From: an uncultured Bacilli bacterium
GTDB lineage: Bacteria; Bacillota_I; Bacilli_A; RF39; UBA660
Assembly: GCA_947598325.1 (NCBI GenBank)
Contig: CANQFD010000001.1
Span: 138,570 to 202,569, forward strand
DNA: 64,000 bases
Direction of reading: 5' to 3'
Shown: in pieces, positions 37,624-44,017 of the stretch
Layout: each line of letters starts with the position of its first letter
Position numbering within the stretch: position 1 is the first letter of the stretch
Notes under the pieces: model-generated
Seen by the model: only the letters and a program-made list of their open reading frames with translations
Database searches by the model: none
Told to the model about the DNA's origin: nothing
Translations under genes and position numbers: made by a program

Positions 37624-37652
37624 ATTATAACACTCTAAAAATTTTATTTCAA
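37624..37652 (-). promoter_or_regulatory. SigA-type promoter of rpsU
   Basis: TTGAAA-17 bp-TATAAT with extended TG. Confidence 0.7.
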
Positions 37653-37757
37653 CATTTTTTTCTTTTTTTTGATAGAAAAAGATGAAATATTAACAATTAT
37701 TGATAAATATGTATAAATTTTGTAACAGTATATTATGCTAAAGTTAAAAATAATTAA

Positions 37758-37782
37758 AAACAAGAGATTATTTCTCTTGTTT
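37758..37782 (-). terminator. Intrinsic terminator of the peptide operon
   Basis: AAACAAGAGA-aataa-TCTCTTGTTT followed by T residues, immediately after the second peptide stop. Confidence 0.8.
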
Positions 37783-37783
37783 A

Positions 37784-37951
37784 TTAATATCTGCATAAAT
37801 TTTTATCTATAATTCTTCTTATAGAAGATCCTAGATATCTACCTAAATCAGTAAATATGGTTACACCTTTAAATATAGAATTTACAAGAGTCCCTGTAAC
37901 TGATGCACCAGCATTTATTTTAAGCATTTCATTTTTATTTAATTCTTTCAT
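37784..37951 (-). CDS. Double-glycine-type leader peptide B, 55 aa, class IIb bacteriocin-like (absent from the ORF track)
   Basis: MKELNKNEMLKINAG / ASVTGTLVNSIFKGVTIFTDLGRYLGSSIRRIIDKNLCRY. GGGGG RBS and a GRYLG GxxxG motif. Confidence 0.85.
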   Translation of the reverse strand: MKELNKNEMLKINAGASVTGTLVNSIFKGVTIFTDLGRYLGSSIRRIIDKNLCRY

Positions 37952-37960
37952 TTTTCCCCC

Positions 37961-38101
37961 TTATCTACACTTATATGGTCTTACATATCCATCTAATATT
38001 CCAACTAAAAACGATATCCCCGCAACTATCGCTGCTACTGCACCCGCAGATATACTACCTGCATTCACATTAAGCATCTCTTCATTAGTTAATTCTCTCA
38101 T
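37961..38101 (-). CDS. Double-glycine-type leader peptide A, 46 aa, class IIb (lactobin A/cerein 7B-like) bacteriocin-like (absent from the ORF track)
   Basis: MRELTNEEMLNVNAG / SISAGAVAAIVAGISFLVGILDGYVRPYKCR. Starts 2 nt after the transporter stop; GILDG GxxxG motif. Confidence 0.85.
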   Translation of the reverse strand: MRELTNEEMLNVNAGSISAGAVAAIVAGISFLVGILDGYVRPYKCR

Positions 38102-38103
38102 TT

Positions 38104-40128
38104 TTACTCCCCCTTTACTGTTAATATTTCATCAAATAAATCACTATTATCATTTCTATGTGAAATTAAAACTAAAGTAAAATTAAAATTTTTCTTTATA
38201 TCCTCTATAATTTTTCTTTCACTTACTGCATCTATTTCATTCATTGTTTCATCTAATATTAATAAATTTGATCCCCTTAATAATGTTCTCGCTAATAATA
38301 TTTTTTGTCTTTCTCCTCCAGATAGATTATGTCCATTTTCTTCTAAAACAAAATCAAGGTTTATATTTCTATCATTTAATATTTTATCTATCATAGTTAT
38401 ACTTAATACACTACGTAATAACTCACTATCAATTTCCTTATACATTTTTATATTGTTAATTATCGTATCTGTAAATATATATTCATTTTGTGATACATAA
38501 CAAATATTATCAGTAATATCTTTACTACTTAGTTTATTTATATCTATGTTATCAATAAAAATAGTATTATCTTCACATTTTAATTGTTTGGTAAGTAATT
38601 TAAATATTGTTGATTTACCTATACCGCTTTCTCCTCTTACAAAAATATACTTGCCCTTTTCTATTTTAAAACTAATATTATTAAGTACATTATAATTCTG
38701 ATTATATGAATAAGAAACATTTTTAAAACATATTTCTTTATTAAATATTAACCCATAACAAGTAGGTTCATCTTCACTATTAGTAAGTATTGAATTAATT
38801 CTTTTATATGAGTTTTTTGCCTCTATTATTGAGTTATCAAATCTAATTAGATTTTTTATTGATGACAACTGATAAATTAATAATGAGTTAAATGCTATTA
38901 AAGAAGAAAATGTTATTAAGCCATTTTTAACAAAATTTATACCAAAAAATAATATAATTATTGTTCCAAATGAAGTTATAAAATCTTCAAATATATTCAC
39001 ATTTACTATTTTTCTATTAAATTTTATATTATTATCTAGTGCTAAACCATATATATTATTGTATTTATTATATATATCTTGTCTTATATTTAGATTATTT
39101 ATAGTATCTATTCCTAGAATACTTTCCATTATAAATGTATTAACCAATGAAGCATTCTCTTTATTTATAATTGATAAGTATTTTATATTAGATCTAATAA
39201 TTAAATAAGATAGAATATAAATTATTAATATAAATAATAAAATAATAAATAATTCTTTACTAAGTATAAGTAAAAAAATACTTATAACAATAGTAAATAT
39301 TAAATCTACTAAAAAAGAAAAGCTAAATTCATTAATAAAATTTTTTATATAAGATAAATCATTTAATCTAGATACAATATCTCCTACTGGTCTACTATGA
39401 TGAAATATAATTGGAAGAGATATAATTTTCCCATAGACTTTATTAGTTATTTTCTTATCAATTGTTTTACTAAAATTGAGTAAAATTGTACTTTTATGTT
39501 TATCTAATGATATTTTAAGAAAGAGAAATATTATAAATATAATTAATATTAATACTGATTTATTTTTATAATTATAAAGATTACTAAAATAAAAAGAATT
39601 AATACTAGATAGGAGTGAACAAATAATAGAAATTAAAAAAATATATATGATAATTTTTTTATATTTACTTAAATATATTAATATCTTTTTAAAATAGCCT
39701 AATTCTTTTTCTTTAACTATATAATCAGTTTTTTTAAATGTTATAACTATACCTGTCCATTCTTTAGAAAAATCATCCATTGAATATTTTAAAATTCCAC
39801 GTATAGGATCAAATATAATTATTTCATCATCTACTATTTTGTCTATTATAACAAAATGATAACAGTTATTCTCAAATTTTAAGTGCGCAATTGAAGGAAA
39901 ATTTAAAGACCAAAGATCATTTAATCCACATTTATAAGATTTTGCTTTTAATCCTAACTTAGAAGATGCTAAAACCATATTATATACGTTGGTTCCATTC
40001 TCATCTGTTTTAGTAAGTCTTCTTAACTTTTCTATATTTATACTACCACCATGATATTTAATGATATTATATAAAGTGCAAACTCCACAATCTTTAATTC
40101 CTTCTTGTTTTATATATCTATGGCGCAT
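38104..40128 (-). CDS. Peptidase-containing ABC transporter (C39 peptidase + TM domain + ATPase)
   Basis: QEGIKDCG (Cys), HFVI (His), FDP (Asp); TM domain; GESGIGKST, LSGGERQK and LILDE. Confidence 0.95.
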   Translation of the reverse strand: MRHRYIKQEGIKDCGVCTLYNIIKYHGGSINIEKLRRLTKTDENGTNVYNMVLASSKLGLKAKSYKCGLNDLWSLNFPSIAHLKFENNCYHFVIIDKIVDDEIIIFDPIRGILKYSMDDFSKEWTGIVITFKKTDYIVKEKELGYFKKILIYLSKYKKIIIYIFLISIICSLLSSINSFYFSNLYNYKNKSVLILIIFIIFLFLKISLDKHKSTILLNFSKTIDKKITNKVYGKIISLPIIFHHSRPVGDIVSRLNDLSYIKNFINEFSFSFLVDLIFTIVISIFLLILSKELFIILLFILIIYILSYLIIRSNIKYLSIINKENASLVNTFIMESILGIDTINNLNIRQDIYNKYNNIYGLALDNNIKFNRKIVNVNIFEDFITSFGTIIILFFGINFVKNGLITFSSLIAFNSLLIYQLSSIKNLIRFDNSIIEAKNSYKRINSILTNSEDEPTCYGLIFNKEICFKNVSYSYNQNYNVLNNISFKIEKGKYIFVRGESGIGKSTIFKLLTKQLKCEDNTIFIDNIDINKLSSKDITDNICYVSQNEYIFTDTIINNIKMYKEIDSELLRSVLSITMIDKILNDRNINLDFVLEENGHNLSGGERQKILLARTLLRGSNLLILDETMNEIDAVSERKIIEDIKKNFNFTLVLISHRNDNSDLFDEILTVKGE

Positions 40129-40189
40129 TTTATCTCCTCCATAGTATATATAAACTAAATAAAAAAAATATCCTCTAAAAGAGTGATAT

Positions 40190-40510
40190 TTAACTAATTA
40201 ATTTTTCTACAATTTTAAAACTTTTTTCTAAACCGTTTGTTAATCCACCATTTATTGCATCTGAAAATAAAGATCCTATATCGGTTATTTTATTGTCATA
40301 ATTTTTACTATCATCTACTAAATAATCTTTTATATTAACATTTTTCCCAGATGCTATATCTTTTTCAAATTCTTTAATTTTTTCTTCTGTAAAATTTGCT
40401 TTTTTCTCATTTTCATATTCGTAATAACCAGATTTAGAAGCTCCATATATAGATAAAAATATAACAAATAAACAAAAAACTATAGTATTAAATATTTTCT
40501 TTGGTTTCAT
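40190..40510 (-). CDS. Small membrane protein at the Bacillus yqxA position
   Basis: N-terminal TM helix and charged tail, 4 nt after spoIIP; family assigned by position only. Confidence 0.55.
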   Translation of the reverse strand: MKPKKIFNTIVFCLFVIFLSIYGASKSGYYEYENEKKANFTEEKIKEFEKDIASGKNVNIKDYLVDDSKNYDNKITDIGSLFSDAINGGLTNGLEKSFKIVEKLIS

Positions 40511-43090: not shown

Positions 43091-44017
43091 ATGAAAAAAA
43101 TAATTGGAATAGTTTTTTGTGCACTTTTTTTTATAATAATGTTAGATGAGAAAATATTAAATGAAAGTATATATGATATATATAATAAATATTATAATAG
43201 AAAAACGTATAGTATTGTAACTAATTTAAAAGCTCTTTCACAAGGAAAATACACATATATGGATCATTCTAGTTATGTTCACTCAACAGAAAATTATTAT
43301 CCAAAAAATAAAAATGAATTACTAGATGTATACTATACTATATTAAATAATGGATGGGAAAACTTTTCTTATTATTGTTCTAATTCTTATGGCAAGTGTT
43401 TAAAAGACATTAGAGAATTATCAGATGAACTTGGTGAATTTTCTAGTATAAATCAAATTGTACATCCATATAATTCTTATAAAACTATACAATCAAATTA
43501 TAACAGTAATAAGCGTATTGATTTATCTATTACAAAAAAATATAGTAATGAGGATATAAATAAAATAGAAAAGAAGATGAATAAAATTATAAATGAACTT
43601 AAAATTAATAGTTATAGTTCTGTAGAAGATAAAATTAAAGTTTTTCATGATTATATTGCAAATACAAATAAATATGATGTAAACAAAATTAATGGAAATT
43701 CAAAATATAATTCTGATAGCGCAATTGGAACACTTTTTGAAGGATATTCTATATGTAGTGGATATACTGATACAATGGCTATATTTTTAAATATGATTGG
43801 ACTTGACAATGTTAGAGTTGCCAATGAAAATCACACATGGAATGTTGTTAAGATTAATAACAAATGGAAACATATAGATTTAACGTGGGATGATCCAATT
43901 ACTAATACTGGAGAAGATATTATTAGTTATGATTATTTTTTAATTAGTACTAATGAATTAATAAAAAAAGATGATAAAGAACATTATTTTAATGAAGAAA
44001 TATATGATTTTTTATAG
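43091..44017 (+). CDS. Secreted transglutaminase-like (Cys-His-Asp) protein
   Basis: N-terminal helix; ICSGY, HTWNVV and HIDLTWDD. Confidence 0.8.
   Translation: MKKIIGIVFCALFFIIMLDEKILNESIYDIYNKYYNRKTYSIVTNLKALSQGKYTYMDHSSYVHSTENYYPKNKNELLDVYYTILNNGWENFSYYCSNSYGKCLKDIRELSDELGEFSSINQIVHPYNSYKTIQSNYNSNKRIDLSITKKYSNEDINKIEKKMNKIINELKINSYSSVEDKIKVFHDYIANTNKYDVNKINGNSKYNSDSAIGTLFEGYSICSGYTDTMAIFLNMIGLDNVRVANENHTWNVVKINNKWKHIDLTWDDPITNTGEDIISYDYFLISTNELIKKDDKEHYFNEEIYDFL

Follow-up and report, generated by a model that had tools for sequence, protein, structure and literature searches.

Two short peptide genes lie directly behind the gene of an ATP-binding cassette (ABC) exporter in a 64,000-nt stretch of DNA (the window) from an uncultured Bacilli bacterium of the gut order RF39, and they raise the question of what such a unit does in a genome of 0.94 Mb (24.9% G+C, 89% complete). 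The exporter carries a Peptidase_C39 domain, and its gene forms an operon with the two peptide genes, here called pepA and pepB. On one side of the operon are gpr, spoIIP, and an open reading frame (ORF) of 106 aa with no family, and on the other side are rpsU, yqeY, yqfC, and yqfD. A preliminary description of this DNA had taken the unit for a two-peptide export system embedded in a sporulation locus, with the architecture of class IIb two-peptide bacteriocins and ComC-type pheromones. Here we examined the operon, its counterparts in related genomes, and its promoter. We favor, with moderate confidence, the reading that the operon encodes a class-IIb-type two-peptide membrane-active killing system with a dedicated peptidase-containing ABC transporter (PCAT), kept as a core, vertically inherited trait.

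All coordinates are positions in the window unless a contig is named, and the operon is read on the minus strand (Table 1). pepA starts 2 nt past the exporter stop codon and pepB 9 nt past the pepA stop codon; each is preceded by a strong GGGGGA-type ribosome-binding site, and an intrinsic terminator closes the operon (one found in the terminator scan, 0.3 expected). The preliminary description had picked out the two missed ORFs beneath an antisense shadow ORF, the terminator, an intact Cys/His/Asp peptidase, matching 15-aa leaders, a hydrophobic 31-aa core and a cationic amphipathic 40-aa core, and a GxxxG motif in each peptide, and it proved right in all details that could be checked. Judged by their conservation, pepA and pepB are real genes and not chance ORFs, because homologues of both trail the exporter in 79 of the 81 related loci examined. 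Across the whole genome, a C39 domain occurs once, in the exporter, and a double-glycine-type leader occurs on two ORFs only, pepA and pepB. No immunity-like, accessory, two-component, or mobile gene was found in the operon neighborhood.

The exporter scored above the Pfam cut-offs for all three of its domains (PF03412, 119.7 bits with a cut-off of 22; PF00664, 101 bits; PF00005, 92 bits). The C39 domain covers residues 4–134 and is followed by a six-transmembrane (TM) ABC_membrane domain and a nucleotide-binding domain. An N-terminal C39 domain, a type I exporter TM domain, and a nucleotide-binding domain together define PCATs, also called AMS. In an alignment, Gln8 (oxyanion), Cys14, His91, and Asp107 fell on the catalytic residues of PCAT1 of Acetivibrio thermocellus (PDB 4RY2), and the nucleotide-binding motifs were intact (Walker A GESGIGKST, signature LSGGERQ, and Walker B LLILDE). 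The exporter aligned over its full length with PCAT1 (E 5e-89) and ComA (8HF4; E 4e-68), which have the same three domains and catalytic residues, although identity is only about 30% and the cargo of PCAT1 is a larger protein.

pepA consists of the leader MRELTNEEMLNVNAG and a core reading SISAG...RPYKCR, with cleavage predicted after Ala14-Gly15, and pepB consists of the leader MKELNKNEMLKINAG and a core reading ASVTG...NLCRY. In both leaders, positions −4, −7, −12, and −15 are hydrophobic and position −8 is Glu, which is the double-glycine pattern. The core of pepA is a helix of hydrophobic character (mean hydrophobicity 0.7–0.9, charge +2). That of pepB, which also contains a GRxxGSxIRR motif, is amphipathic, with a helical moment of up to 0.84 and a charge of +4. 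Over 34 genera, the only invariant core residues were G34 and G38 in pepA and G37 and G41 in pepB, which make up one GxxxG in each peptide. This helix–helix motif is characteristic of class IIb two-peptide bacteriocins. When sequences were scanned singly, 24 of 34 pepA peptides matched the lactobin A/cerein 7B model TIGR03949 at E<0.01 (best 4e-8). The lactococcin G models gave weak matches in the expected pairing, pepA to beta (13/34) and pepB to alpha (5/34). Two of the features by which class IIb is recognized, an adjacent pair of double-glycine-leader genes (79/81 loci) and one GxxxG per peptide, are present; a cognate immunity gene in the operon and an antimicrobial activity that requires the two peptides in roughly equal amounts also belong to the class. 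The leaders, the GxxxG motifs, and the PCAT support the two-peptide architecture proposed at the outset. A metagenomic protein of 102 aa, P0129, is a natural in-frame pepA–pepB fusion in which Gln takes the place of the pepA stop codon; the fusion may be genuine or may reflect a sequencing error.

Each peptide also has a conserved C-terminal cysteine, Cys45 in pepA (RPxKC) and Cys53 in pepB (NxC). Among the 79 loci with both peptides, the cysteine was present in both at 76 and in neither at three, with no discordant locus; the three Cys-less loci represent one genus and two diverged peptide sets. Such pairing would fit a joint role, e.g., an inter-peptide disulfide. We found no inter-peptide disulfides in two-peptide bacteriocins in the literature, and no description of RF39 bacteriocins. 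The cleavage dipeptides of pepA and pepB in the same locus were GG/GG at 66 loci, AG/AG at six, and mixed at seven. This matching may be taken as weak evidence for one shared protease, weak because seven loci are mixed. Genus g4 (loci L034, L150, and L152), in which both peptides have lost the C-terminal cysteine, has in addition acquired a third short peptide with a double-glycine leader, encoded upstream of pepA.

A full-length exporter with C39 was found in 11/11 other genomes of the genus (47–58% identity) and in nearly all of 25 other sampled genera of the family (26–38% identity), and homologues of pepA and pepB followed it in 38 neighborhoods, bar two decayed cases. A pepB profile matched 378 of 401 family genomes, including 290 of the 298 of high quality, and 211 of 214 genera; the genomes of this family are about 1 Mb in size. 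In a sample of 400 genomes of the class, full-length pepB matches outside the family occurred in one genome of another family, and the other matches outside the family covered the leader part only. When the profile was run against 1.84 billion representative proteins, 375 clusters (defined at 50% identity) were obtained, 66 of them at E<=1e-10 and almost all of 50–57 aa, and no names for them were found in public sources. P0030 (2076 aa, 15 ‘matches’) was rejected as a spurious repeat protein. As a separate observation, five complete genomes of about 0.8 Mb in family f12 (G047, G434, G526, G541, and G651) encode 139-aa ORFs whose N-terminus matches the leader of the pepB profile; a possible role for these ORFs is as cargo of cleaving ABC transporters of the Mbov_0121 type, which occur in mycoplasma-like genomes.

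Pairwise distances of the exporter correlated with those of Era, YqfD, and a 205-aa neighbor (rho 0.69–0.86; 0.66 for YqfD vs Era), and the distances of pepA correlated with those of pepB (0.71). The mean peptide distance was 0.52–0.57, compared with 0.51 for YqfD. Because the distances are congruent with those of neighboring genes and the position is conserved, these comparisons indicate that the module, near-universal in the family, is vertically inherited. The earlier guess that the peptide pair belongs to the core genome was thereby strongly borne out. The patchy, mobile pattern that the preliminary description had named as evidence against a developmental role was not seen when the neighborhood was mapped in relatives; the opposite was found. 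The module has decayed occasionally: the peptides were lost in G008 and G029, the exporter is a pseudogene in G037, and 8 of the 298 high-quality genomes have no pepB. In G037 (locus L059), which belongs to the same order and another family, the exporter gene contains several stop codons, and pepB and a leaderless paralogue of it (see below) are intact. Such occasional decay speaks for a social function that can be dispensed with and against an essential one. Metagenome-assembled genomes of close relatives came from the gut of rabbit, Hadza human, water deer, and cattle.

No recognizable immunity gene was found in the window or in the rest of the genome, and the preliminary description had reported neither an immunity nor an accessory gene. 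This holds for the genus and fails for its relatives. In 16 of 27 loci outside the genus, an accessory protein of 110–166 aa with one TM helix is encoded between the exporter and pepA. In 30 of 81 loci, pepB is immediately followed by a leaderless ORF of 48–58 aa. Its N-terminus is basic, it has a single TM helix, and a C-terminal segment of the form G-x-x-x-G-x-x-x-R gives a score with the pepB model; it ends in Cys at the pepB-equivalent place in 22 of the 30. We read this ORF as a membrane-anchored pepB paralogue, for which decoy-type immunity would be the simplest role. No Pfam family was found for the accessory protein or the leaderless paralogue, and this genome has no homologue of either. 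The ancestral module probably also held both of these genes, and this genus would then have a minimal three-gene version from which they were lost. Two ORFs near the operon were rejected as substitutes. The ORF at 37644–37796 (50 aa) spans the terminator and the rpsU promoter, has no counterpart in the genus, and does not match the paralogue model, so it was not retained as an immunity gene; the upstream 106-aa ORF neither matches the accessory model nor belongs to a Pfam family.

The two sides of the locus differ in conservation. rpsU, followed by yqeY, yqfC, and yqfD, is directly downstream of the module in about 22 of 38 loci, and the rpsU side is on this account ancestral; in the window, rpsU has its own strong sigma-A-type promoter past the terminator. 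In contrast, spoIIP or gpr was within about 7 kb of the exporter in 0 of the 38 relatives. In five genomes of the same genus, the upstream neighbors are two other genes, of 196 and 199 aa, and a sixth genome (G003) has the same layout. Homologues of these two genes are located here at C1:100631-101807, about 75 kb away, which places a rearrangement breakpoint immediately before the exporter promoter (about 40168–40190). By this comparison, only this genome has spoIIP/gpr next to the operon, as the result of a species-specific rearrangement, and the sporulation setting appears largely accidental. The claim that the system is embedded in a sporulation locus therefore did not stand; only the rpsU–yqeY–yqfC–yqfD side is widely kept. 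The genome itself contains genes for Spo0A, a SigH-like factor, SpoIIGA–SigE, SigK, Gpr, SpoIIP, YqfC, and YqfD. Elsewhere in the window, a 308-aa protein encoded at 43091–44017 (+) showed a weak match to the MAG6410 family (mycoplasma transglutaminase-related lipoproteins).

A conserved non-sigma-A promoter box, AGGAATTT, which is sigma-H-like, precedes the exporter across the family. The sigma-H consensus is RNAGGAWWW / RNNGAATWW with 11–12 nt between the two (PMC8510167). The A(A/G)GGAATTT box was found in 27 of 37 exporter upstreams and in 38 of 480 other genes of the same loci (Fisher 3e-19), and GGAATT alone in 17 of 37 and 14 of 480, respectively. The box sits directly past the upstream terminator, about 45–55 nt before the start codon, with a −10-like element 11–12 nt on; in the window it is the 3′ arm of a hairpin that follows the upstream 106-aa ORF. 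The box is real and specific, and its assignment to SigH has about even odds. The SigH-like factor (200 aa; C9:26580-27170; L124 1492-2094, minus) is encoded between an rlmB-type methyltransferase gene and nusG, an arrangement canonical for sigH. With the SigH model, five sigma genes were found (SigH-like, SigA, SigE, SigK, and a 437-aa one), with no match for SigF or SigG in this 89%-complete assembly. Upstream of spo0A (C2:88647-89390; L155-L164 in the genus) are 0A boxes of sequence TTCGACA in two or three tandem copies and a sigma-A-like extended −10, TGTTGTATAAT, which implies autoregulation from a sigma-A-type promoter.

A position-weight matrix built for the genus, with the promoters of the exporter and of an M23 murein hydrolase gene as its training sequences, had its top sites in this genome at four genes only, among them the three outside the window listed in Table 1. 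These four sites suggest a very small regulon. The M23 protein (654 aa) is membrane-anchored and has a C-terminal M23 peptidase domain. Its gene is preceded by a T-run, AGGGGAATTT, and a −10, as is the exporter, in 5/5 genus genomes that have the gene (L128–L132).

Table 1 Features of the exporter–peptide operon and of the candidate regulon. Positions are those of the window unless a contig is given.
Feature	Position	Strand	Remarks
PCAT exporter gene	38104..40128	-	674 aa; Peptidase_C39 + ABC_membrane + ABC_tran
pepA	37961..38101	-	46-aa precursor; 15-aa leader + 31-aa core
pepB	37784..37951	-	55-aa precursor; 15-aa leader + 40-aa core
Intrinsic terminator closing the three-gene operon	37758..37782	-	Terminator scan
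Exporter ribosome-binding site GGAGGAG	40134..40140	-	Read from sequence
−35-like box AGAGGATAT	40168..40176	-	Family consensus A(A/G)GGAATTT; fits sigma-H −35 RNAGGAWWW
−10-like region AGTTTATATATACT	40143..40156	-	11 nt past box; RNNGAATWW in some relatives
Antisense shadow ORF over the peptides	37857..38180	+	
M23 murein hydrolase with Listeria-Bacteroides repeats	C5:57371-59335		Matrix top site; outside window
577-aa surface protein	C2:104011-105744		Matrix top site; outside window
157-aa membrane protein upstream of radC	C1:65909-66382		Matrix top site; outside window

From the genes, motifs, distribution, and promoter conservation, which are established, we infer how a killing system of this kind would work. 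The single PCAT would recognize the amphipathic leaders, cleave after Ala-Gly (Gly-Gly in most relatives), and export both cores. pepA and pepB would pair helix-to-helix via their single invariant GxxxG motifs, and the C-terminal cysteines would lie together, probably for an inter-peptide disulfide or another joint function. The complex would then permeabilize the membranes of neighboring, probably related, cells, and the leaderless paralogue, where present, would act as a decoy-type immunity protein. Transcription would start from the conserved non-sigma-A promoter with its sigma-H-like −35 box. The same promoter type on the M23 hydrolase gene suggests a co-regulated kill-and-lyse programme by which an auxotrophic lineage may harvest nutrients or exclude competitors. 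Sibling killing, as proposed in the preliminary description, is plausible, with indirect support from the promoter that the exporter and the M23 hydrolase have in common. RF39 is described as a gut order with strongly reduced genomes and multiple auxotrophies (PMC6784871); sporulation and a need for scavenged muropeptides are predicted for it (PMC10868615). In a more elaborate, lineage-wide kill-and-harvest scenario, which we offer tentatively and consider doubtful as a whole, a sigma-H-family switch at stationary phase or entry into sporulation would turn on a disulfide-linked permeabilizer and the M23 hydrolase, which together would lyse neighbors, and lipids, amino acids, muropeptides, or DNA would be scavenged; immunity would be conferred by a membrane-anchored copy of a toxin peptide.

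Several results weigh against a class-IIb-type killing system or against parts of the mechanism. The missing immunity gene sits poorly with a self-toxic bacteriocin. The exporter falls short of the cut-off of the NCBIfam bacteriocin_ABC model TIGR01193 (325.7 vs 523.85 bits) and, on this score, is a divergent relative outside the curated membership. pepA of the window is below the TIGR03949 cut-off (17.2 vs 21.5 bits, E 0.003), and the two peptides of the window are under the curated cut-offs. As to the disulfide, the cysteines were lost together only once in evolution, and a disulfide is uncertain in the reducing gut. AlphaFold2 returned two helices for the P0129 fusion at low confidence (pLDDT 57), which does not inform on packing. 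As to sigma-H, the −10 in the genus is mostly TTAT, not GAAT, and the box is absent in the genus from spo0A, which served as a positive control. The strict sigma-H consensus was not enriched genome-wide (32 found vs 35 expected); in DNA of 25% G+C a degenerate consensus separates sites poorly, and only the positional box test and the genus position-weight matrix were informative.

The same data can be read in other ways. The peptides may act on the producer itself: the exporter would set the heterodimer, together with the paralogue where present, on the outer face of the producer's membrane, with a role in envelope, channel, or sporulation physiology. Near-universal retention in ~1-Mb genomes would be expected of such a role, and the genus has kept the peptides despite the loss of the putative immunity gene. 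The peptides evolve at an ordinary rate, the third ORF could be a third subunit instead of an immunity protein, and the locus is linked to rpsU–yqfC–yqfD in many genomes. However, the decay in G008, G029, and G037 and in the eight high-quality genomes without pepB marks the module as dispensable, the GxxxG motifs and the matches to bacteriocin models are features of known killing peptides, the sporulation adjacency is not conserved, and the promoter is common to a secreted murein hydrolase. We consider a self-directed function unlikely, though worth keeping in mind.

A signaling role, with one or both peptides as ComC/BlpC-type pheromones or as a PCAT-exported developmental signal like that proposed for HetC in Nostoc, appears improbable. 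Double-glycine leaders and a dedicated PCAT are common to pheromone systems, the promoter looks transition-state-like, and a part in cell differentiation has been described for one PCAT (PMC10986499). A ComC/BlpC circuit is defined by a cognate histidine kinase and a LytTR regulator, however, and neither was found at the locus; the LytTR domain is absent from this genome and from 7 of 10 genomes of the genus. The cores are 31–40-aa transmembrane or amphipathic segments whose GxxxG is kept over 200 genera, whereas pheromones diversify into pherotypes. The ComC-type and developmental-signal proposals of the preliminary description are accordingly weak. It is still less probable that the operon is an ordinary accessory bacteriocin island acquired horizontally. 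Its architecture is typical of one, and an ABC exporter with peptides is common mobile cargo, but the module occurs in 211 of 214 genera at a conserved position and with distances congruent with its neighbors, and neither an integrase nor a transposase was found near the operon.

If the kill-and-harvest reading is true, a major uncultured gut clade would use bacteriocin-type fratricide as a core strategy of nutrition and not as a strain-level weapon. Bacteriocin loci are normally strain-variable accessory genes; here the module has persisted throughout the existence of a family of >200 genera, in genomes from which the synthesis of fatty acids, amino acids, and vitamins has been lost. This retention suggests strong, lasting selection on a peptide-mediated cell–cell interaction in a prevalent uncultured gut lineage. 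What stands out in this system is its core-genome status, the paired cysteines with their possible covalent two-peptide design, and the toxin-derived immunity candidate. It also gives two leads, an unannotated peptide family of ~375 clusters and a possible small regulon of an alternative sigma factor. Cores of this length can be synthesized, so their function is testable without culture, and the mature peptides might help to explain or manipulate RF39 ecology.

Among known systems, the class IIb bacteriocins (lactococcin G/enterocin 1071, NF038034/NF038035; lactobin A/cerein 7B, TIGR03949) have in common with this operon the adjacent double-glycine-leader gene pair, the dedicated C39 exporter, one GxxxG per peptide, and the combination of a hydrophobic and a cationic partner. 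They differ in that here the exporter gene comes first, the genus is without an immunity gene, and each peptide has a single C-terminal Cys; in addition, class IIb systems are strain-variable, whereas the present module is a family-wide vertical core trait with peptides below the curated cut-offs. The Skf and Sdp cannibalism toxins of Bacillus subtilis kill siblings at the onset of sporulation under Spo0A control. They are the example of sibling killing in a spore-former that lay behind the sibling-killing idea of the preliminary description, but their peptides and export machinery are unrelated, and no 0A boxes were seen at the exporter promoter. By analogy of architecture, the closest functional analogue is pneumococcal CibAB/CibC. 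CibAB is driven by the sigma-H-family factor ComX. It is a double-glycine pair close to core status, comes with a small TM immunity peptide, CibC, and acts with the co-regulated murein hydrolases CbpD, LytA, and LytC (PMC7595303). The likeness is one of architecture, with no sequence homology shown. CibAB uses the shared ComAB/BlpAB exporters, whereas the exporter here is dedicated and lies in the same operon. The co-regulation proposed here would rest on the common promoter type, and the candidate immunity protein in the RF39 relatives is a paralogue of one of the toxin peptides.

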